A stretch of DNA of 33,263 nucleotides from a virus (Duplodnaviria; Heunggongvirae; Uroviricota; Caudoviricetes), in the IMG/VR virus record IMGVR_UViG_2703718853_000003, positions 1 through 33,263 of that record; one strand, given 5' to 3'. Below, one piece after another: positions 5,729-27,851 of this stretch; position 1 is the stretch's first letter, and each line of letters begins with the position of its first letter. The position numbers were made by a program, and so were the translations under genes. The notes beneath the pieces were generated by a model. That model had not been told where the DNA came from, did not search any database, and saw nothing but the letters and a program-made list of their open reading frames with translations.

Positions 5729-5949
5729 ATACCCCATATAAGAGTTGTTCTTGCTCAACATGGCATCTGAACGCAAAGATAAAAGCCTGGGAGGCATACA
5801 GATAGTCCTGCTGTAAGTTAGTTGGAAAAAGATTGATTTACTTTATTACAGGAAGCCTCGATAAAATAATTCTAACGTGGATAAGGATATAAATTTATTA
5901 TAATGAATCTGTCAATATTATAATAAATGTTATTTTTAAAGAGATGAAA

Positions 5950-5985
5950 GGTAGGGTTGTTGTTTGTTGGTTTTTGTGATATAAT
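5950..5985 (+). promoter_or_regulatory. Candidate sigma70 promoter with extended -10 (TGaTATAAT) for the cargo ATPase operon
   Basis: TGATATAAT at 5977-5985 with a TTGTTG-like -35 about 18 bp upstream, inside an AT-rich intergenic region about 40 bp before the ATPase start. Confidence 0.4.
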
Positions 5986-6025
5986 ATTAAATTCATGTAA
6001 CTAGTAAATGCAAATGGAAAAAAGC

Positions 6026-7162
6026 ATGAGAATAAAATCACTGGAGACATATAACTCTCACAGTAAATTGAAAATTAATAAAATAGAATTCAAATCACTG
6101 ACCTTATTGGTTGGTGCTTCAGGTGTAGGGAAAACACAAATACTTCGTTCTATCAATAAAATAAAGTCTATCGCACATGGTGATTCCGTTAGTGGGTTTT
6201 GCTGGAACGTTGAGTTTAATGCTGAAGGTAATGATTATCAATGGTCTGGTGAGTTTGAGGCGCTGGAGGATTATGATGATTTTACTTATGGAATGTTTCA
6301 TTTTGATGATGACGACAAGGTTGAACCAAAAATTATAAAAGAAGAAGTTAAAATCAATGGTTCAATTATTATCACCAGAAGTGGCGATGATATCGTTTAT
6401 AATGACAGTAAAACAGTTAAGCTGGCTTCTACAGTTAGTATAGTTCATCACTTGCGTGAGGAAGATGATATTTCGGTTATACACAAGTCATTTTCACGAA
6501 TTGTGCAAGTTGATGATGATGAAATGCATAAGGTGTTTCCTAGAAAAAATAAAGATGCTTCAGAGGATGAAGAGCTTAGCATCAATGATATCAGAGAGAA
6601 GTCATTCTCTTTGAGTGCTAAGTTGTATTTGTGTCAAGAAAAACAACCAGTCTACTTTCATCAAATTAAAAATTCATTTGTGGAGATTTTTCCATATATT
6701 GAAGATATAAAGGTGGTTAAGGTTGATACAAGAGGGATTCCTTTCTTTGTTCATTCTGTATATGCACTCAAGGTTAAGGAAAGAGGGATTGATGAGTGGA
6801 TTTCGCACAATTCAATGTCTACCGGGATGTTGAAAACATTTGTCCAACTGGCATATCTGCATCTTAGCCCGACGGGAACTGTGTTCTTAATTGATGAGTT
6901 CGAGAATGGCTTTGGTGTTAACTGTATTAATGATATAACAGATGTGCTACTACATCATGGTAATGATGTTCAGTTTATTTTGACGAGTCATCATCCTTAT
7001 ATTATAAATAACATACCGCTTGATAACTGGAAAATTATTTCAAGGAAGGCCGGGGTTGTTGATAACTATTCTGCGGATTTTTTTAATTTAAAAGAATCCA
7101 ATCATGAGGCGTTTACTAAATTAATAAATTTAAGCGTTTATTTTGATGGTGCGGATAGATGA
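6026..7162 (+). CDS. ABC/SMC-like P-loop ATPase (AAA_15/AAA_21-like; OLD N-terminal / AriA-like), cargo gene
   Basis: Walker A GASGVGKT, ABC-signature-like SMSTGMLK, Walker B VFLIDEFENG, H-loop-like LTSHHP. The N-terminus MRIKSLE is typical of this ATPase class. Start could also be ATG 6008 or 6014. AT-rich codon usage unlike the backbone. Confidence 0.8.
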   Translation: MRIKSLETYNSHSKLKINKIEFKSLTLLVGASGVGKTQILRSINKIKSIAHGDSVSGFCWNVEFNAEGNDYQWSGEFEALEDYDDFTYGMFHFDDDDKVEPKIIKEEVKINGSIIITRSGDDIVYNDSKTVKLASTVSIVHHLREEDDISVIHKSFSRIVQVDDDEMHKVFPRKNKDASEDEELSINDIREKSFSLSAKLYLCQEKQPVYFHQIKNSFVEIFPYIEDIKVVKVDTRGIPFFVHSVYALKVKERGIDEWISHNSMSTGMLKTFVQLAYLHLSPTGTVFLIDEFENGFGVNCINDITDVLLHHGNDVQFILTSHHPYIINNIPLDNWKIISRKAGVVDNYSADFFNLKESNHEAFTKLINLSVYFDGADR

Positions 7163-7869
7163 ATTTGTATATTTTGGCTGAGGGGCGACAAACAGAGCGC
7201 AGAATCTATCCGGCATGGATAGGCGTTCTATCTCCATCTTTAAAGCAAGTTGAGTGTTTGTCTGCAATAGATAAAAACAACTATTATTTTATAAGCGGCG
7301 AGGGATATCCTCGTATGATTGATGTGACGCTTATTAATGCAATTAAAGATATACATGATAACCCTAAATTTACCGATTTTTGGGTTGTGCTAGACTCTGA
7401 AGGAGAGGATGTTGAGGCAAGGAGAGAGCTTGTTAGAAATAAGATTGATTCTTCTGGTATAGATATATCTCATTGTGAAGTAAATATAATAGTTCAAAAT
7501 CCGTGCATAGAAACGTGGGGGCTAGGGAATCGAGTCATTATTTCGCCAAATAAGTTGACTGAATCTTTTTTGGACTATTATGAGCACTATGATGTGTCAT
7601 CCAATGATCCAGAGGGTATGGGGAAGCCTCTTGCCTATGACGGATCAATTGCTAAGTATCACGAGAGTTATTTAAAAAGTATGCTTGCTTTAAGAAATGC
7701 AATGTATACGAAAAAAAATCCAGCAGCATTGATGGAGCCTTCATATTTGCAACAGCTTATATCCAGAGCTTATGCTGAGGATGGACATATACCAAGCTTT
7801 AGGCATTTTCATACGTTGGCTACTCAGCTTGAGGCTAAAGCGAAAATGTTGGAAAGCCGTGTAGCGTAG
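7159..7869 (+). CDS. Small TOPRIM-like partner protein (DUF4276/DUF4435-like, putative nuclease), cargo gene
   Basis: 236 aa; start ATG overlaps the ATPase stop (ATGA). N-terminal LYILAEG (conserved Glu) and VVLDSEGED (acidic DxE/D cluster) fit a TOPRIM-like signature. The family call is inferred from motifs only. Confidence 0.6.
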   Translation: MNLYILAEGRQTERRIYPAWIGVLSPSLKQVECLSAIDKNNYYFISGEGYPRMIDVTLINAIKDIHDNPKFTDFWVVLDSEGEDVEARRELVRNKIDSSGIDISHCEVNIIVQNPCIETWGLGNRVIISPNKLTESFLDYYEHYDVSSNDPEGMGKPLAYDGSIAKYHESYLKSMLALRNAMYTKKNPAALMEPSYLQQLISRAYAEDGHIPSFRHFHTLATQLEAKAKMLESRVA

Positions 7870-7875
7870 AATTGA

Positions 7876-7919
7876 CGACATCATGCATTTTTGTGCATGA
7901 TGTCGCATTTGTTTTTTTA
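7876..7919 (+). terminator. Rho-independent terminator after the cargo operon
   Basis: 12-bp perfect stem cgacatcatgca / tgcatgatgtcg (7876-7887 and 7894-7905), followed by a T-rich tract ending in seven T. Confidence 0.7.
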
Positions 7920-8003
7920 TGTCCTCTCTAACCAATATTGCTCTGTTCGTTAGTATTTGTAGCGGGCATGCACCTGCATTAAAACCGACCCATGAAGTGG
8001 GCG

Positions 8004-8022
8004 GGCGAGGCGGGGAAAGCAC
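8004..8022. other. cos site (19-nt cohesive end GGCGAGGCGGGGAAAGCAC)
   Basis: Matches the P2 cohesive-end sequence as I remember it, at the expected place between the old/tin region and Q. Confidence 0.6.
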
Positions 8023-8162
8023 TGCGCGCTGGCGGTGGTGCTGATTTTATTTTTTCAGCGTCTCAGCGCGTCGTGATGGCATTTAGTCGGCCTGCAGGGG
8101 CGTTGGTGTGTCTGCGGGGTGTTTTGTGCGGTGGTGAGCGTGTGAGGGCGTGATGACGGGGT

Positions 8163-8187
8163 GTAAAAAAGCCGCCCGCAGGCGGCG
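8163..8187 (-). terminator. Rho-independent terminator downstream of Q (minus strand)
   Basis: gccgcc-cgca-ggcggc hairpin at 8171-8186; on the minus strand it is followed by a six-T run (plus-strand A-run 8165-8170), immediately 3' of the Q stop. Confidence 0.6.
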
Positions 8188-8191
8188 TTGT

Positions 8192-16927: not shown

Positions 16928-17378
16928 GTTTAAGCGTTTTGAAGACCGGCTGACCGGACTGACTGAATCGCTGTCACCGTCAGGGCGTCGGCGACTGGCG
17001 ATAGATATTGCGAAGAAGCTGCGTCAGCGCCAGCAGCAGCGAATTAAATTACAAAAAGCCCCGGATGGTACGCCGTATGTACCGAGAAAAAACCAACCAG
17101 TACGAAATAAGAAAGGCCGGATAAAGCGGGAAATGTTTGTGAAATTACGCACTAACCGGTTTATGAAAGCAACAGGTAGCGAGAGTGCGGCGGTGGTGGA
17201 GTTTGCCAGCGGAGTACAACGAATTGCGCGAGTACATCAATTAGGGCTTAGGGATAAGCCGGGGCGTAATAGTGCTGTGGTGGAATATCCTGTTCGTGAG
17301 TTATTTGGTTTTGACAAGGAATCTATACAATTGATAGAAAGGGAGTTATTAGTGATTCTATCGAAAGATGTTATATGA
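16920..17378 (+). CDS. S: Tail completion protein S
   Basis: 152 aa in the P2 S position; the 3' end runs into AT-rich sequence. Confidence 0.8.
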   Translation: MNEFKRFEDRLTGLTESLSPSGRRRLAIDIAKKLRQRQQQRIKLQKAPDGTPYVPRKNQPVRNKKGRIKREMFVKLRTNRFMKATGSESAAVVEFASGVQRIARVHQLGLRDKPGRNSAVVEYPVRELFGFDKESIQLIERELLVILSKDVI

Positions 17379-18130
17379 GACGGGTGTTTGTGGATAAAAA
17401 GTTTTCCATTTTGAGAAAAAGAGTAAAGCATTCTCAAAAGAAAGTTATGGATTGTATTATTGCTGACCATAATGCTGATATATGTGTGTTATGCGGGAGT
17501 TCTGACGATATTACTCGTGAGCACATTATTCCTCAGTGGGCCTTTGAGTCAAATGCTGAAAAATCTTTAATTAATAAAAAGAATAATCAGTCAACTCATT
17601 ACATTAAAGCCACTGTACCAGCATGCAGAGTGTGCAATTCTGATTTGCTGGGAGTGTTTGAGTATAACCTGAAGAAATTTCTTACGGAAAAGAGGGGCGA
17701 TGAGTTAACAGATTATGAATATGATTGCATCATATGGTGGTTGCAATACATGGGCTTTAAGTTGCAATTAATGGATTTACGGACCCGCTTTCTCAGGTTT
17801 AAAGGGGGGGATTATATCCCTTTCCTTGCAAACTTCCCGGTTGCAATGTTTTGGGGGAATGTCGATACGACACCGGAGGATGTCTTCAGGATTATAAGAA
17901 AATCGCGACGCAATCTGATGTCGAAATGGAAGGATAAAAAACATAATTCTTTGATGGTTTTTGAAACATCAAACAAGAGTTTTCATTTCTTTCATAAGGT
18001 TGATGAATTTATTTTTATTGAAATGCCTCAGGTTAAGAAGGCGTTTTTCTTCTTTTTTAATAAAGAAATTGACAGCCATGATTTAGCTCATGAGGAGTGT
18101 ATGAAGATTATAGAGAAGTACTACAACTAA
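17375..18130 (+). CDS. HNH-motif protein (putative HNH endonuclease-domain moron, P2 orf30 position)
   Basis: 251 aa, AT-rich, ATGA-coupled to S. CVLCGSSDDITREHIIPQW ... CRVCNSDL matches a CxxC...(E/D)H..P...CxxCN HNH / His-Me finger pattern. Confidence 0.6.
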   Translation: MRRVFVDKKFSILRKRVKHSQKKVMDCIIADHNADICVLCGSSDDITREHIIPQWAFESNAEKSLINKKNNQSTHYIKATVPACRVCNSDLLGVFEYNLKKFLTEKRGDELTDYEYDCIIWWLQYMGFKLQLMDLRTRFLRFKGGDYIPFLANFPVAMFWGNVDTTPEDVFRIIRKSRRNLMSKWKDKKHNSLMVFETSNKSFHFFHKVDEFIFIEMPQVKKAFFFFFNKEIDSHDLAHEECMKIIEKYYN

Positions 18131-20633: not shown

Positions 20634-22883
20634 ATGAGCACAAAATTCAAAACCGTTATCACCACTGCCGGTGCAGCAAAGCTGGCAGCGGCAACCGCGC
20701 CGGGAGGGCGGAAGGTCAACATTACCACGATGGCCGTCGGGGATGGCGGTGGTAAATTGCCTGTCCCGGATGCCGGACAGACCGGGCTTATCCACGAAGT
20801 CTGGCGACATGCGCTGAACAAAATCAGCCAGGACAAACGAAACAGTAATTATATTATCGCAGAGCTGGTTATTCCGCCGGAGGTGGGCGGTTTCTGGATG
20901 CGTGAGCTTGGCCTGTACGATGATGCTGGAACGTTAATTGCCGTGGCGAACATGGCTGAAAGTTATAAGCCAGCTCTTGCCGAAGGCTCAGGGCGTTCGC
21001 AGACCTGCCGCATGGTCATCATCGTCAGCAGTGTGGCCTCAGTGGCGCTGACCATTGACACCACAACGGTGATGGCAACGCAGGATTACGTTGATGACAA
21101 AATTGCAGAACATGAACAGTCACGACGTCACCCGGACGCCTCGCTGACCGCCAAAGGTTTTACTCAGTTAAGCAGTGCGACCAACAGCACGTCTGAAACA
21201 CTCGCCGCAACACCAAAAGCGGTAAAAGCAGCATATGACCTTGCTAACGGGAAATACACTGCACAGGACGCCACCACAGCGCGAAAAGGCCTTGTCCAGC
21301 TCAGTAGTGCCACCAACAGCACGTCTGAAACGCTCGCCGCAACACCAAAAGCGGTAAAAGCAGCATATGACCTTGCTAACGGGAAATACACTGCACAGGA
21401 CGCCACCACAGCGCGAAAAGGCCTTGTCCAGCTCAGTAGCGCCACCAACAGCGATTCTGAAACGCTTGCGGCAACGCCAAAGGCGGTTAAGACAGCGTAT
21501 GACCTTGCTAACGGGAAATACACTGCACAGGATGCCACCACAGCGCGAAAAGGTCTTGTCCAGCTCAGTAGCGCCACCAACAGTGATTCTGAAACGCTGG
21601 CTGCAACACCAAAAGCGGTGAAGTCTGCCTATGACAATGCTGAAAAACGTCTTCAGAAAGATCAGAACGGTGCGGATATTCCTGATAAAGGACGCTTCCT
21701 GAGTAACATTAATGTTTACAGCAAAGGTGAAGTGGATAAGAAAAAGGGAATGCGAAAGTATTCGTTTGCAGCCCCTGCAAATGTCGTTGCCGGGAAGTGG
21801 TATCCCGTTATCTTTCGCCGTGCTGCCAGCCTTTCAGGAGAAATGGCATCCCGCGTCGTTATTTCAACTGGTTGTTATAACGGCGATTATGTAATGAATA
21901 ACTGCGAGTTTAATGGCATGGTTATGCCCGGAGGCTGGACCGATCGTGGTTCATATGCGGCAGGTTATTTCTGGACGTATCAGACTAATGAGCGTTCAAT
22001 CCATTCCATTGTTACAAGCCTGAAAGATGATGATGTATGTAGTGTTTTTTATGTTGAAGCCAGAGCTTTCCCAGTACAAATTCTTGCAGAGGAAGGGCTA
22101 ACGGTTATTGTTCCGACAGAGGATTATGTCGTCGGTCAGACGACATATAAGTGGGGGGCAACTAATCCCGCTACAGAAAGCACGAACGTACAGGCTATTC
22201 TGGATTTTAAAAATGGACGTGGTTATTACTGTTCACATCCATTTATTTCCAGCCTTTCAGGAAATGCTGCAACAGCAACTAAGTTAGCGAACGCAAGAAA
22301 TATTAATGGTGTCAGATTTGATGGCTCTGCCGATATAAATATTAATACACTGGTATCCAGAAACCGTGTTACTGCATTAGGTGGGAGCGTAAAGGGGACA
22401 CCAGGTATTCAGATGTATGAGGCATACAACAATGGCTACCCAACAGCCTATGGTAATGTGCTTCATCTCACTGGCGTAACCGCTGTAGGAGAGGGTGAGT
22501 TACTTATTGGCTGGAGTGGAACCAGCGGTGCTCATGCTCCGGCATATATTCGCTCCCGACGAGATACCACAGATGCTAACTGGTCTGGATGGGCGCAACT
22601 ATATACAACTGCTCATAAACCCTCAGCGGGAGATGTTGGTGCATACACCAAAGCTGAGTCAGATTCACGTTATGTGAGAGACATGCGGCTGGGCGGTGCA
22701 TCTACATATAAACCAGCAAATAATGGTACTACATGGACGCATCAGGCTCCGTCAGGTTGCGTATATACCGGCATTATTGTTCAGGATACCGGCTCAAACT
22801 CTGCCGATAACATTGGTGGCGTATATTACAGACCGGTGCAGAAATACATTAACGGGACATGGTATAACGTGGCGCAGGTATAA
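20634..22883 (+). CDS. H: Tail fibre protein H
   Basis: 749 aa. Conserved N-terminus, tandem tail-fibre repeats in the middle, and an AT-richer divergent C-terminal (receptor-binding) part. Confidence 0.85.
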   Translation: MSTKFKTVITTAGAAKLAAATAPGGRKVNITTMAVGDGGGKLPVPDAGQTGLIHEVWRHALNKISQDKRNSNYIIAELVIPPEVGGFWMRELGLYDDAGTLIAVANMAESYKPALAEGSGRSQTCRMVIIVSSVASVALTIDTTTVMATQDYVDDKIAEHEQSRRHPDASLTAKGFTQLSSATNSTSETLAATPKAVKAAYDLANGKYTAQDATTARKGLVQLSSATNSTSETLAATPKAVKAAYDLANGKYTAQDATTARKGLVQLSSATNSDSETLAATPKAVKTAYDLANGKYTAQDATTARKGLVQLSSATNSDSETLAATPKAVKSAYDNAEKRLQKDQNGADIPDKGRFLSNINVYSKGEVDKKKGMRKYSFAAPANVVAGKWYPVIFRRAASLSGEMASRVVISTGCYNGDYVMNNCEFNGMVMPGGWTDRGSYAAGYFWTYQTNERSIHSIVTSLKDDDVCSVFYVEARAFPVQILAEEGLTVIVPTEDYVVGQTTYKWGATNPATESTNVQAILDFKNGRGYYCSHPFISSLSGNAATATKLANARNINGVRFDGSADININTLVSRNRVTALGGSVKGTPGIQMYEAYNNGYPTAYGNVLHLTGVTAVGEGELLIGWSGTSGAHAPAYIRSRRDTTDANWSGWAQLYTTAHKPSAGDVGAYTKAESDSRYVRDMRLGGASTYKPANNGTTWTHQAPSGCVYTGIIVQDTGSNSADNIGGVYYRPVQKYINGTWYNVAQV
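21156..21645 (+). repeat. About 3.7 tandem copies of a 132-bp (44-aa) in-frame phage tail-fibre repeat inside H
   Basis: Repeated LSSATNS(T/D)SETLAATPKAVKAAYDLANGKYTAQDATTARKGLVQ units with nearly identical nucleotide sequence. This is what produces the long antisense ORF 21164..21580. Confidence 0.85.
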
Positions 22884-22886
22884 TTT

Positions 22887-23414
22887 ATGCAGCATTTAAA
22901 AAATATTACGGCGGGTAATCCAAAAACGGTTGAACAATATCAATTGACAAAGGACTTTGATGTTGTCTGGTTTTTTTCTGAAGATGGTAAGAACTGGTAC
23001 GAAGAACAAAAGTATTTTGCTGATGACACGATAAAAATAGCGTACGACAAAGATAATATCATCCGCTATGTGGAAAAGGATGTGACAGCTATCAGACCGG
23101 ATGGATTAAGTATTGTTGAAGTGGCGGATATTACTGCTAACCGACGGGCGGACATTTCAGGGAACTGGATGTTTAAGGACGGCAAAGTGATTAAACGCAT
23201 TTATACGGCAGAGGAATTACAGCAGCAGGCAGAAATTCAGAAAGCCAGACTTCTTGCAGATGCTGAATCCGTGATTTTGCCGCTGGAGCGCGCGGTCAGA
23301 CTGAACATGGCAACAGATGAGGAGCGCACACGGCTGGAGGCTTGGGAACGCTACAGCGTTGTGGTCAGTCGTGTAGATCCTGCAAATCCTGAATGGCCGG
23401 AAATGCCGCAATAA
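22887..23414 (+). CDS. G: Tail fibre assembly protein G
   Basis: 175 aa, the length I recall for P2 G, directly after H. Confidence 0.85.
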
Positions 23415-23592
23415 GTTGTATGAACTCTTGTGTGAGCTTACATACCTATAGAACAGAGTAAAGCCTAATCTGACAGTCCGCTCTGTGCCAGGAGCGGACG
23501 TTACTGACATCACAATGTGTTAATCAATAGAGAGCAGGTCACCATAATGTCATGGGTATCGCTGGTGATATGATCGCAATACACGACAATTA

Positions 23593-24267
23593 TTATTTAA
23601 TGATTTTAAAAAGTTCATTGTAGCTACAACCTTTGAATATTTCGAACTGATCATGGTAATTTGAATAAGCGCTTGCCATCATTCCGATATAACTATCCCA
23701 TGATGACTCAGAAACTACCCTTTCACCACGCTCTAATTCATCAATTAAAATATAAATAATATTAAATTGTGCAACAAGAGCAGTGTAGGTGGTGATGAGA
23801 TTATTTAGAAGGTCTGAATGATTAGGTTTGATTTTCCACAAACCAAAACTATCCCGAATTGCAACTAATTCGAATCGTAAATCTTTTGACTCAGAAAGTA
23901 ACTCCCTCCCACTTGTAGTGAGATGCTTGTAGAGTATGGGGTTCTCACTTTTTATTCTTGGCTGTATAGAAATAAGTGATTGATAACATTGATGATTTAA
24001 GTCCTTTGATCGAAACATGCTGTCGATGAACAATGTAGTTCTCTCGAAAGCCTTTTCTGATTTTTTGTTTTTAATCCATTCATTTACCCTTGTTAATGCA
24101 TAAATCGCTAGTCCAAGTGTTATTGTTGAAACTGTTGCAGTAATTGTTGATGGTTCAATTTTTTTAAAAAACCAGATATCAATCCATGCAAAAGAGACTG
24201 AGCCGAGATACATAAACAACATGTGACTCGCGAAGTATTCCCAAACACCTTTTAAATAGCTTTTCAT
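23593..24267 (-). CDS. Small membrane protein (two predicted N-terminal TM helices), cargo gene of unknown function
   Basis: AT-rich minus-strand ORF. The second ATG (24267) is preceded by AAGGA; the first ATG is at 24282. Hydrophobic stretches HMLFMYLGSVSFAWIDIWFF and ITATVSTITLGLAIYAL. A TATAAT-like -10 lies just upstream on the minus strand (plus 24290-24295). Confidence 0.6.
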   Translation of the reverse strand: MKSYLKGVWEYFASHMLFMYLGSVSFAWIDIWFFKKIEPSTITATVSTITLGLAIYALTRVNEWIKNKKSEKAFERTTLFIDSMFRSKDLNHQCYQSLISIQPRIKSENPILYKHLTTSGRELLSESKDLRFELVAIRDSFGLWKIKPNHSDLLNNLITTYTALVAQFNIIYILIDELERGERVVSESSWDSYIGMMASAYSNYHDQFEIFKGCSYNELFKIIK

Positions 24268-24443
24268 GTAGATCCTTAACATTTTCTTAATTATATTTTA
24301 TGGTGGTATTTTTGTTAGTATCGGCATGGATTAGAAATAGTTGATACTTTTATGCCCTGAGAGCATGAAAACTGGAAAAGCCTTGCTCATGATATAAATA
24401 GTGTTAGTTGCCACTGCTTTGGAAGTTATCCTTTAAATGGGCT

Positions 24444-24700
24444 ATCGGAAAGCCAGACTTCTAGCAGATGCTGAATCCGTGATTTTGCCGCTGGAGCGCG
24501 CTGTCAGGCTGAATATGGCAACAGATGAGGAGCGCAGTCGACTGGAGGCATGGGAACGCTACAGCGTTCTGGTCAGTCGTGTGGATCCTGCAAATCCTGA
24601 ATGGCCGGAAATGCCGCAAGAAGTTGTATGAGCTCTGGTGTGAACTTACATATCTATGGCACAGAGTAAAGCCTAATCTGACAGTCCGCTCTGTGCCGAA
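24444..24700 (+). repeat. Degenerate direct duplicate of the 3' end of G plus its downstream sequence (G' remnant)
   Basis: About 250 bp highly similar to 23236-23490. The encoded [57 protein letters not shown] copies the G C-terminus, with the G stop changed to a sense codon. Not an independent gene. Confidence 0.8.
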
Positions 24701-24921
24701 GCTAGCAAAGCCATGGTCCTTTCGCAGCAAGTTGCGTAAATAAGGCGTTTTTATCTCTTGAAGCATTCTACAAAGCCAACTCCTCGCTCAAACAGACGTG
24801 TCTGTTCAGCAATCTGCCCGCTTGGTATCAAGGGACGCCAGTAACGCGATACCGGGTGAATTCCTTCCTTAACTGCCCTCACATCATCTTTAATAATAGT
24901 TTACCCTGATATAACGGATGA

Positions 24922-26301
24922 TCAGAAGTCAATCAGGTCATCGAATTTCTGAGGTGGCTCTTGTTTTCGAACGCTATCTCCCTGATGAATCTCCGTCTCA
25001 CTTGTTTGGTATTTTACACCAGTAATTTTATGATAAGTCATACTGTTGGTTTTCAACAGTAGTGCATCATTTTTGTCATGCGAGGATGAAAATGAACCCA
25101 TATGTCTCGGTTTTATTTGTTCCTCAACTATCAACTGAATTTCCGGAACAAAAGCATACTGGTCATCTTCGATGTGTTCATACATCTCAACATTATATCG
25201 GCGAGATTTATCTGCGGCATGCCTGACGCCGGAAGACTTATTAAACAGAACGACATTATATCCTGTCTCAGCATCCTCACCGTTGGCATCTACCTGGGTA
25301 GATTTAAAGCTGACACCATCAAGCTTAAATTTATTTCGGTCACCTAGGTAATCGGCAACCACTTGGGTGATGAGGTAATCACTGTCCTGCCTTTTTCCAA
25401 AAGTAGGAAGCGTCAACTTACGGGAAAGCGTACTGAAAAAAATCGCGCGCTCACTGGTTTTGCGAGTCTGAGGATCAAATTTACTACCTGAGCCGAAACT
25501 AATCGAGTCAAGGGCAGAAATGTCCAGCACTTTTAGCTCGCGTAACGGTATAAAACAGGCCGTTACTACAATACTGCCGACGGGCGGCCTTACTTCAGCA
25601 ATTGCCAAATTCACTGAGGTTGCACCGTAAAATACTGAAATCCCCTGTGCGTTCATACGGCCCGACCGAGCCAAAGTTGTTGGGGGAGGTCCAAAATTTT
25701 TCTCGGGATGCTCCAAGGCTTGCTTTACTTCCTCTTGGTCCTCAAAAACCCTTGCACGAAAAAGATGAACCTCATCAGTCAGAGTTTTTATCGGTGAATT
25801 ACTGTCTCTGTTTTTTAGTTTATCGATATCACTGAAAAGTGAATCCAGGAAATCATTAACTTCACGGTTAAAATATCGTGTTTCTTTCATAAGGGAGTCA
25901 GTGGCTTTACTCCAGGTATGCGCAAGCTCTCCGCTATAGTGATTTATGTGCCGATAAAGAAACCCGTCATTATACCGGATGTAGTCATAATCGTTATGCG
26001 GATTATATTCATCACAAAGAAGTTCATAAATATCTTCAGCTACGTCCCATTCGACGCCCAGTTCTCCGTAGATGACATCCTGCGCGCTATCACCGCGCCC
26101 GGAATCATAGATATCCTCATATATATCATAATAGTACTCAAAAACCTCATTCATCATCTTGAGAATATATTTGAGGTGGATGTTTTTACGCTTCCTTTTG
26201 CAGTAAGAGCAAATCTGAAAATTATTTCCAGTTTTTATTATATGCTGCATGACATATTTATCGTTCACGCATTTATGACAAATATACTTATCTTCCCACA
26301 T
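24922..26301 (-). CDS. RES-domain protein with N-terminal zinc ribbon (candidate NAD+-targeting abortive-infection effector), cargo gene
   Basis: 459 aa, AT-rich, minus strand. N-terminal CHKC-x19-CSYC zinc ribbon. RES signature LFRARV ... SGRMNAQGISVFYGATSVNLAIAEV ... DGVSFKS...GYNVVLFN at about aa 178-356 (roughly nt 25234-25770). Domain call is by motif recognition only. Confidence 0.65.
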   Translation of the reverse strand: MWEDKYICHKCVNDKYVMQHIIKTGNNFQICSYCKRKRKNIHLKYILKMMNEVFEYYYDIYEDIYDSGRGDSAQDVIYGELGVEWDVAEDIYELLCDEYNPHNDYDYIRYNDGFLYRHINHYSGELAHTWSKATDSLMKETRYFNREVNDFLDSLFSDIDKLKNRDSNSPIKTLTDEVHLFRARVFEDQEEVKQALEHPEKNFGPPPTTLARSGRMNAQGISVFYGATSVNLAIAEVRPPVGSIVVTACFIPLRELKVLDISALDSISFGSGSKFDPQTRKTSERAIFFSTLSRKLTLPTFGKRQDSDYLITQVVADYLGDRNKFKLDGVSFKSTQVDANGEDAETGYNVVLFNKSSGVRHAADKSRRYNVEMYEHIEDDQYAFVPEIQLIVEEQIKPRHMGSFSSSHDKNDALLLKTNSMTYHKITGVKYQTSETEIHQGDSVRKQEPPQKFDDLIDF

Positions 26302-26537
26302 TTTTTACTCACTCATCATCAGCTGATACAGGGTCACTTTCCTGCAATTTTATAATTAAATCAAGCATAAAAACCCTCTTCACACATTAATGCTTTCAGT
26401 GTGAAAATAATTAGTGGTGCACTGTACTGATAATAATTACGAACTTCCGCTTCTCGCTCAAAGCAGACTGTCAGATTTGATAGCGTTTGGGCTATGTAAA
26501 TTGTCAGTCGTAAAATTAGTGAGTACAAATCAGGACA

Positions 26538-26564
26538 GGCGGGCGGATTGCCCGCCTTTTCTTT
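26538..26564 (+). terminator. Rho-independent terminator between the cargo island and FI
   Basis: ggcgggc / gcccgcc stem (26538-26544 and 26550-26556) followed by TTTTCTTT. Confidence 0.55.
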
Positions 26565-26660
26565 ATCTGTTGTTTCATCCACTGACCAGCCAGGTCAAAT
26601 AGCGTCTCATGCTCTGCACAACAGAAAATAGTTGCACCCATTAACCACGGAGTTAAACGG

Positions 26661-27851
26661 ATGAGTGACTATCATCACGGCGTGCAGGTGCTGGAGATTA
26701 ACGACGGCACCCGCGTCATTTCCACCGTATCCACGGCCATTGTCGGCATGGTCTGCACGGCCAGCGATGCGGATGCGGAAACCTTCCCCCTCAATAAACC
26801 TGTGCTGATTACCAATGTGCAGAGCGCAATTGCAAAGGCCGGTAAAAAAGGCACGCTGGCGGCATCGTTGCAGGCCATCGCCGACCAGTCAAAACCGGTC
26901 ACCGTTGTCGTGCGCGTGGAAGACGGCACCGGCGACGACGAAGAAACGAAACTCGCGCAGACCGTTTCCAATATCATCGGCACCACCGACGAAAACGGTC
27001 AGTACACCGGACTGAAAGCCCTGCTGGCGGCGGAGTCGGTAACCGGTGTTAAACCGCGTATTCTCGGCGTGCCGGGACTGGACACCAAAGAGGTGGCTGT
27101 TGCACTGGCATCAGTCTGTCAGAAGCTGCGCGCTTTCGGGTATATCAGCGCATGGGGCTGTAAAACCATTTCCGAGGTGAAAGCTTACCGCCAGAATTTC
27201 AGCCAGCGTGAGCTGATGGTCATCTGGCCGGATTTCCACGCATGGGATACGGTCACCAGTACCGCCGCCACCGCGTATGCCACCGCCCGTGCGCTGGGTC
27301 TGCGCGCTAAAATCGACCAGGAGCAGGGCTGGCATAAAACGTTGTCCAATGTCGGGGTGAACGGTGTTACCGGCATCAGCGCCTCTGTATTCTGGGATTT
27401 GCAGGAGTCCGGCACCGATGCTGACCTGCTTAACGAGTCTGGCGTCACAACGCTGATTCGCCGCGACGGTTTTCGCTTCTGGGGTAACCGTACCTGCTCT
27501 GATGACCCGCTGTTCCTCTTTGAAAACTACACCCGCACCGCGCAGGTGCTGGCCGACACGATGGCTGAGGCGCACATGTGGGCGGTGGACAAGCCAATCA
27601 CCGCAACGCTGATTCGCGACATCGTTGATGGCATCAATGCCAAATTCCGAGAGCTGAAAACAAACGGCTATATCGTGGATGCGACCTGCTGGTTCAGCGA
27701 AGAATCCAACGATGCGGAAACCCTTAAGGCCGGAAAACTGTATATCGACTACGACTATACCCCGGTGCCTCCTCTTGAAAACCTGACTCTGCGCCAGCGT
27801 ATTACCGATAAATACCTGGCAAATCTGGTCACCTCGGTTAACAGCAATTAA
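26661..27851 (+). CDS. FI: Tail sheath protein FI
   Basis: 396 aa, the length I recall for P2 FI; GGAG Shine-Dalgarno upstream. Confidence 0.9.
   Translation: MSDYHHGVQVLEINDGTRVISTVSTAIVGMVCTASDADAETFPLNKPVLITNVQSAIAKAGKKGTLAASLQAIADQSKPVTVVVRVEDGTGDDEETKLAQTVSNIIGTTDENGQYTGLKALLAAESVTGVKPRILGVPGLDTKEVAVALASVCQKLRAFGYISAWGCKTISEVKAYRQNFSQRELMVIWPDFHAWDTVTSTAATAYATARALGLRAKIDQEQGWHKTLSNVGVNGVTGISASVFWDLQESGTDADLLNESGVTTLIRRDGFRFWGNRTCSDDPLFLFENYTRTAQVLADTMAEAHMWAVDKPITATLIRDIVDGINAKFRELKTNGYIVDATCWFSEESNDAETLKAGKLYIDYDYTPVPPLENLTLRQRITDKYLANLVTSVNSN

Follow-up and report, generated by a model that had tools for sequence, protein, structure and literature searches.

Separately acquired single-gene cassettes, a predicted aRES allele and a small membrane-protein gene, probably stacked in the G-FI cargo hotspot of a P2-like prophage

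The interval between the tail fibre assembly gene G and the tail sheath gene FI of P2-like phages has been named moron position 2, or the Z/fun locus (Wiles 2013, PMC3573123), and is the second defence-enriched locus of these phages, at which three new systems were found in addition to P2's fun (Vassallo 2022, PMC9519451). Non-defence cargo at moron position 2 includes the acyltransferase gene neaT (PMC3573123). A 2026 survey of P2 and P4 hotspots reported further, less populated hotspots, some of them within the P2 late genes, and noted that the underlying recombination mechanism awaits elucidation. Here, the G-FI interval (positions 23415-26660) was analysed in IMG/VR record IMGVR_UViG_2703718853_000003, whose 33,263 nucleotides (nt), referred to as the window, represent a P2-like (Peduovirus) prophage with a left-end integrase, a gpA replication protein, a portal, and baseplate and tail genes. 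The interval holds two genes on the minus strand, one encoding a 224-amino-acid (aa) membrane protein and the other a RES-domain enzyme.

The fusion of a Zn ribbon, a HEPN/RES-NTD1 domain and a RES domain was catalogued computationally in 2013 (PMC3710099), and proteins of this kind have since been named aRES (Osterman et al., bioRxiv 10.64898/2026.01.28.702374, 28 January 2026). In that preprint, aRES are defined as stand-alone RES proteins of 300-600 aa with both PF08808 and PF18870, the latter accepted at an HHsearch probability >80%. According to the same text, three cloned members shield Escherichia coli from diverse phages, with growth arrest; during T7 infection NAD+ is depleted to nicotinamide and ADP-ribose-1''-phosphate (ADPR-1''-phosphate), which the phage NARP1 pathway is unable to recycle; the member from E. 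coli UC5 defends alone when cloned and is non-toxic until infection; and phages counter aRES with a Macro-domain phosphatase or the inhibitor aRad1. Defence islands are the setting given there, and prophages are nowhere mentioned.

Measured against these descriptions, the G-FI interval of the window is unexceptional: the hotspot is known, its defence gene has been described recently, its second gene is uncharacterised, and none of its main elements is new. Taken as a whole, our interpretation, which we regard as probable, is that aRES and the small membrane-protein gene are two single-gene cassettes that would have been acquired separately and then stacked in the hotspot, and that they do not form one system. 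The stacking would have come about by unequal recombination between two P2-like phages, each carrying one of the cassettes, leaving a 253-nt stub of the second G gene (G') between them; this is the simplest history that we can infer. The order of elements is G, left scaffold, module 1, G' stub, module 2, right scaffold, terminator and FI, with the following coordinates:

22887-23414, plus strand: G, tail fibre assembly gene, which closes the late V-G operon and is the left backbone anchor of the hotspot (Pfam Caudo_TAP, 1.2e-33)
23415-23502, no strand: left scaffold arm, with the 35-nt hairpin TAATCTGACAGTCCGCTCTGTGCCAGGAGCGGAC at 23465-23499, an inverted copy of 26442-26477
23503-24444, minus strand: module 1, made up of the gene for the small membrane protein and the region upstream of it
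23593-24267, minus strand: gene for the 224-aa protein of an uncharacterised family, in which two transmembrane helices at the N-terminus are followed by a four-helix bundle at the C-terminus
24290-24318, minus strand: candidate sigma-70-like promoter of the small gene (CTAACA-17-TATAAT, 10/12, a consensus match only)
24445-24697, plus strand: G' remnant, comprising 187 nt from the 3' end of a second G allele and 66 nt of the scaffold that follows it, with its break inside the hairpin loop (direct repeat D1)
24698-26441: module 2
24698-24921, minus strand: non-coding 3' tail of aRES, 224 nt
24922-26301, minus strand: aRES, a stand-alone protein of 459 aa in which a Zn ribbon at the N-terminus and a putative HEPN/RES-NTD1 domain accompany the RES domain
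26302-26441, minus strand: AT-rich region upstream of aRES, presumed promoter site (GC 0.329), within the module common to the lambdoid-prophage copy
26442-26536, no strand: right scaffold arm, which repeats the left arm in inverted orientation (I1 and I3)
26537-26564, plus strand: intrinsic terminator of the late V-G operon, a backbone feature (terminator scan: 9-bp stem with 7 G-C pairs at 26537-26557, T-run to 26564)
26565-26660, plus strand: FI upstream region, 96-97% conserved across all compared P2-like loci, empty sites included
26661-27851, plus strand: FI, tail sheath gene and right backbone anchor (Pfam Phage_sheath_1, 7.9e-34)

An initial sequence-only reading of the window had described the interval as a 3.2-kb AT-rich island with two cargo genes on the opposing strand, expanded at the place where P2 holds only Z/fun. 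The windowed GC calculation agreed as to composition: the interval has a GC content of 0.405, against 0.560 for the late-gene backbone, and ranks lowest of the 601 sliding windows of 3246 nt. Both cargo genes were confirmed as intact minus-strand open reading frames (ORFs; 23593-24282 and 24922-26301), and foreign cargo at this position agrees with the published moron and defence hotspot (PMC3573123, PMC9519451). The island is not uniform but composite: GC is 0.342 in module 1, 0.526 in the G' stub and 0.413 in module 2. Moreover, the variable portion extends only from about 23503 to 26441, while the outer 88 nt and 219 nt are kept in P2-like phages with other cargo; in the comparison of P2-like loci the conserved left flank stops at about 23490-23509 and the conserved right flank begins at 26441-26446.

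Other features of the locus are those of the hotspot. The flanks are 88-97% identical among the loci compared (93-96% where those of the window match P2-like phages), and parts of the interval belonging to them match in 1818 of 5426 complete E. coli genomes, whereas the entire interval was found in seven; the interior had no match among 50,697 phage records. At least seven unrelated cargoes occupy the site. In other prophages and phages it holds a Lit-family exclusion gene, an S1 peptidase gene, a helix-turn-helix (HTH) gene with an acetyltransferase gene, genes for NUDIX and HAD hydrolases, an HNH endonuclease gene or assorted hypothetical genes, on either strand.

The stub between the two cassettes would be a trace of their separate arrival. 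Through a direct repeat of 253 nt (23237-23489 and 24445-24697, 93% identical), 178 nt from the end of G are present twice, as are some 75 nt that follow the gene. Translated, the stub yields the C-terminal part of a tail fibre assembly protein (Caudo_TAP, 5.5e-18); the E. coli AHB5 locus, which is 99.2% identical, has it as a partial pseudogene and labels G itself tail fiber assembly protein. Because it is only 93% identical to G, the stub comes from a different G allele and not from a fresh duplication. The two cargo genes are 654 nt apart (24268-24921), with the G pseudogene fragment inside that distance. The C-terminal part of the tail fibre gene H (20634-22883) and G have GC contents of 0.46 and 0.45, both under that of the backbone, which would fit a tail-fibre module that arrived together with module 1. 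A peptide of about 44 aa (…SSATNS(T/D)SETLAATPKAVKAAYDLANGKYTAQDATTARKGLVQL…) is repeated in four tandem copies at about 21150-21620 in H; these repeats and the lower GC of the H C-terminus and G suggest an exchanged host-range module.

The RES gene is filed as an aRES allele because its product is near-identical to the UC5 protein tested by Osterman et al.: 12 of 459 residues differ (97.4% identity), in a comparison that spans the first 399 aa and the C-terminal end taken from 399 nt of 3' DNA (Supplementary Table S4). The differences lie at positions 3, 28, 29, 60, 78, 94, 115, 198, 208, 251, 346 and 457, none of them on an invariant column. Identity to the other two validated members is 74.9% (Enterobacter) and 44.5% (Klebsiella). 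The protein is stand-alone, falls within 300-600 aa, has a Pfam RES match (PF08808, 4.2e-14) and keeps its active-site residues intact; the N-terminal four-cysteine motif, R182, R184, E236 and S273, invariant across 40 homologues, are all present. PF18870 matches at E <= 0.01 in 36 of the 40 aligned family members. Judging from its near-identity to the UC5 protein, the window enzyme would be a stand-alone abortive-infection enzyme, idle until phage infection; once activated it would phosphorolyse NAD+ to nicotinamide and ADPR-1''-phosphate, arresting the cell and leaving NAD+ in a form that NARP1 cannot recycle. The 224-nt tail downstream of the gene occurs in 12 of the 5426 genomes, always adjoining the RES gene, and its first ~135 nt are 74% conserved beside the Klebsiella variicola homologue.

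Each of the two genes was also found without the other. The aRES module alone (24696-26469) is present at 97% identity in a lambdoid prophage of four E. coli genomes, where it adjoins a Lit-family exclusion gene and hokD (e.g. E. coli PF9285, L002 6236-7615). More distant aRES relatives occur beside an integrase gene in Rahnella, in Burkholderia, in Klebsiella and on plasmid-like contigs, and one from Aeromonas caviae (L009 5001-6392) lies in the gpA-ogr/portal hotspot of a P2-like prophage. Among the seven contexts compared, no conserved neighbour gene of aRES was detected. The convergent genes for proteins of 325 and 336 aa that stand beside two of the homologues were discarded as candidate partners, being unrelated to each other and to the window. 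Conversely, the small-gene module alone (23465-24444) is carried at 99% identity by a non-P2 chromosomal island of E. coli CU42ET-1, near dynamin-like and patatin genes, where module 1 has the same right end, 24444; in all, module 1 is present in nine of the 5426 genomes. In E. coli UTAK-5 (L004 2890-3587) an IS1 replaces 23611-24321, that is, the small gene and its promoter, with G, the G' stub and aRES intact.

Some observations weigh against this interpretation or against parts of it. The match of the window protein to HEPN_RES_NTD1 (PF18870) by hmmscan is weak (E 4.2e-4, 21.1 bits, under the gathering score of 27.4), the UC5 comparison has the composite span given above, and the evidence for aRES is a single preprint. 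A consensus scan of 26302-26441 for minus-strand promoters with at least 9/12 matches yielded none for aRES. In P2 prophages of complete E. coli genomes, the aRES allele always stands beside the small gene or its IS1-truncated remnant, which can be read as linkage; however, the region is identical to 98.6% or more, which indicates a single recent lineage as the source of this co-occurrence. The function proposed below for the small protein is without homology support, and four-helix bundles are generic.

The small gene lies in an ORF at 23593-24282, whose start is most likely 24267, giving 224 aa, because all homologues and the PGAP annotation begin at MKSYLKG; an AAGGA Shine-Dalgarno motif is found 7 nt before this ATG. 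Hydrophobic helices are located at about residues 12-34 and 40-60. The family is small, with 12 clusters in 5.8 billion proteins by word search and 36 representative clusters among 1.84 billion by profile search, all of about 220-235 aa. PADLOC, NCBIfam and PHROGs gave nothing for either cargo protein, and the 224-aa protein had no Pfam match either, its remote members giving sub-threshold hits only. By tblastn, no homologue of either protein was detected in 50,697 deposited phage genomes, nor of the 224-aa protein in 72,556 plasmid records. A suspected homology to a protein at the Z/fun position of a P2 record was rejected (hhalign probability 0.2%).

The homologues were found in P2 hotspot 2, in a P1-like element beside an ImpB/UmuC-like gene, in a chromosomal island, at the extreme ends of siphovirus-type prophages of Pantoea and Enterobacter, and on the chromosome of Citrobacter, where phage-like genes lie within a few kb; all the contexts examined are phage accessory regions or genomic islands. 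Relative to the homologues in P1-like phages (P0129-P0132) the protein is a mosaic, 84-87% identical over residues 1-85 and only 18-21% over residues 86-224. The near-invariant two-helix membrane hairpin could serve as anchor or effector, with the highly variable four-helix bundle setting specificity. Lambda RexB, T4 Imm and P22 SieA are prophage membrane proteins that exclude or abort superinfecting phages, and we tentatively propose that the 224-aa protein is likewise a lysogen-expressed superinfection-exclusion or membrane-acting abortive-infection protein, an assignment that is plausible but short of probable.

The main alternative is a non-defence accessory role, by which the protein would act in lysogenic conversion or host physiology, or would serve the carrying phage in lysis timing or counter-defence. 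We consider this possible, though on the unlikely side. It is in line with the lack of homology to any defence family, with the tiny size of the family, and with the non-defence genes such as neaT among the hotspot cargo (PMC3573123), whereas the contexts, all of them phage accessory or moron positions or islands and transcribed against or apart from late genes, and a C-terminus that diverges while the N-terminus is conserved, as is typical of conflict genes, speak for defence; in related work on P4, six of eight tested unknown genes in such hotspots protected.

A further possibility concerns the hairpin of the scaffold. The scaffold amounts to ~180 nt in all (88 nt that follow the end of G and 95 nt that lead up to the terminator), and its arms are kept in P2-like loci with six other cargoes and missing from empty sites. 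When joined, the arms fold end to end as one imperfect hairpin (-61.7 kcal/mol, z -4.6; none of 200 shuffles was as stable), and eight P2-like loci that differ in cargo retain this symmetry. In a covariation analysis of eight P2 loci, no more than one or two pairs were compensatory, too few to claim selection for pairing, and Rfam detected no RNA family within 23300-26800. The window contains three copies of a 16-nt core, AATCTGACAGTCYGCT, at 23467 (plus), 24675 (plus) and 26462 (minus), against 0.02 expected by chance, and the G' stub breaks in the hairpin loop at 24697. The 35-nt hairpin is also present alone in chromosomal islands of CFT073, SC492 and CU42ET-1 (L003 6001-6038, L031 4001-4035 and L032 4001-4038), which share an upstream flank; homology ends at or after the hairpin and is followed by three different cargoes, one of which is module 1. 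This junction element is not a widespread repeat, an exact 20-mer of it being present in only five of 185,579 species-representative genomes. The element may be a cassette-exchange site, or a shared terminator-like remnant. The stronger proposal, that the hairpin is a dedicated exchange site shuttling single-gene defence cassettes between P2 prophages and chromosomal islands and that the 224-aa protein is a new stand-alone anti-phage gene, appears rather unlikely to us.

It is very improbable that the RES gene encodes the toxin of a toxin-antitoxin (TA) or addiction module stabilising the prophage, or a ParT-like protein ADP-ribosyltransferase. The closest solved folds are indeed those of MbcT, NatT, ParT and Res, and PGAP labels the product RES family NAD+ phosphorylase, but neither the window nor the seven other contexts has an Xre/HTH antitoxin ORF next to aRES, and the 459-aa protein includes a 200-aa N-terminal regulatory region; in the preprint the UC5 protein was not toxic before infection and made ADPR-1P. 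A 43-aa ORF downstream of aRES (24751-24882) was examined as an antitoxin candidate and rejected, its frame being broken by indels in relatives. When PDB sequences were searched with a profile of the aRES alignment, no genuine chain match emerged, only spurious gremlin matches.

The sequence-only reading had left two options for the cargo genes, independent function or cooperation as a membrane sensor and a RES effector. The second, in which both form one defence system, the RES enzyme being switched on by a membrane protein that detects infection at the envelope, is very improbable: the genes are adjacent, lie on the same strand and occur together in the seven complete E. coli genomes with the entire interval, but a G pseudogene fragment separates them, the small gene has its own promoter-like site, each is found on its own, homologues of aRES have no conserved neighbour, and the 97.4% identical UC5 protein defends alone. 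A two-gene operon would call for co-occurrence across unrelated genomes and for co-transcription, which the distribution and spacing of the pair do not suggest. The first option, independence of the two genes, is upheld. The least credible explanation treats the island as inert debris of recombination that has no selected function, in favour of which the G' pseudogene fragment and the IS1 in one strain could be cited, but both ORFs are intact and annotated as coding sequences in seven genomes, and the catalytic and Zn-ribbon invariant residues of aRES are all kept, with no UC5 difference on an invariant column.

The terminator was also traced to its origin. The interval had been thought to be closed by a plus-strand terminator just before the FI ribosome-binding site, insulating lysogen-expressed genes from late transcription. 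The terminator is real, but its stem ends 103 nt before the FI ATG and it belongs to the backbone, not to the island. Empty G-FI sites of 128 nt in E. coli NCTC11151 (L028 763-890) and of 132 nt in M45 (L029 746-877) contain the hairpin ACAGGCGGGCGGATTGCCCGCC-TTTTCTTT 4-5 nt past the G stop codon, followed by the conserved FI upstream region. Because it stands directly after G in these sites, the hairpin is the terminator of the V-W-J-I-H-G late operon, and G is separated by the island from the terminator of its own operon. The proposed insulation is not supported, the island lying inside the predicted late transcript. Between G and 26537 no other convincing plus-strand terminator was found, only two weak candidates at the level of shuffled sequence, so that late transcripts, if not halted by Rho, would continue for ~3.1 kb and run antisense to the two cargo genes. 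P2 late promoters are silent in the lysogen, and expression of each cargo gene there would depend on a promoter of its own; late in the lytic cycle, transcription continuing past G would traverse both in antisense. In P2, the stretch corresponding to 26565-26660 holds the Ogr-dependent late promoter PF.

In terms of novelty, this interpretation adds little, with the hotspot in print since at least 2013 (PMC3573123), its role in defence since 2022 (PMC9519451) and aRES since January 2026. Nevertheless, aRES, so far described in defence islands, is here carried by temperate phages, in both P2 hotspots and in a lambdoid prophage; it may thus spread by way of prophage hotspots, even though no homologue was detected in the 50,697 deposited phage genomes. 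The stacked cassettes with the G' stub would be a concrete, datable example of two P2 phages merging defence cargo. The residual interest lies in the small membrane protein, which could yield a new defence gene, and in the junction element, which bears on the unexplained mechanism of cassette swapping.

Two other AT-rich regions were observed in the window. The first (5729-8191, GC 0.376) separates gpA from the portal gene, at the old/tin position that is the other P2 hotspot, and includes an AbiL-like pair at 6008-7869 on the plus strand, made up of an AAA_21 ATPase (PADLOC AbiLi, 8e-19) and a 236-aa partner (AbiLii, 8.5e-6). The second is an insert at 17375-18130 (plus strand, GC 0.361) that corresponds in position to orf30 of P2, with the tail completion gene S on one side and the spike gene V on the other; its 251-aa protein had no Pfam or PADLOC match.

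With regard to known systems, the junction element alone resembles the attC sites of integron cassettes, being a short imperfect palindrome downstream of each cargo ORF at the point where the cargo changes; it differs in having no linked integrase, in breakpoints that vary by several nt within or after the hairpin, and in arms that are inverted around the whole cargo instead of one per cassette, and no membership is claimed. The 224-aa protein is like RexB, Imm and SieA in kind only, as a small inner-membrane protein of prophage cargo that is presumably expressed in the lysogen, without detectable homology to any of them. In contrast to the RES-Xre toxins (MbcT, NatT, Res and ParT), the window aRES has no antitoxin gene and bears ~200 extra N-terminal residues (Zn ribbon and putative HEPN/RES-NTD1) and a C-terminal beta-rich extension. 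The locus shares with P2 moron position 2 the G-FI site, low GC, variable content, conserved flanks and cargo often opposite to the tail genes, and it differs in its two stacked cassettes with a G' stub and in its cargo, aRES and an uncharacterised gene instead of fun, neaT or the PD systems. Finally, the RES gene appears to share the architecture of the aRES of Osterman et al. and, given the 97.4% identity to the UC5 protein, infection-triggered NAD+ phosphorolysis with growth arrest would be the expected mechanism; it departs from them by 12 substitutions and by its setting, as cargo of a P2 hotspot with relatives in lambdoid and Aeromonas P2-like prophages.

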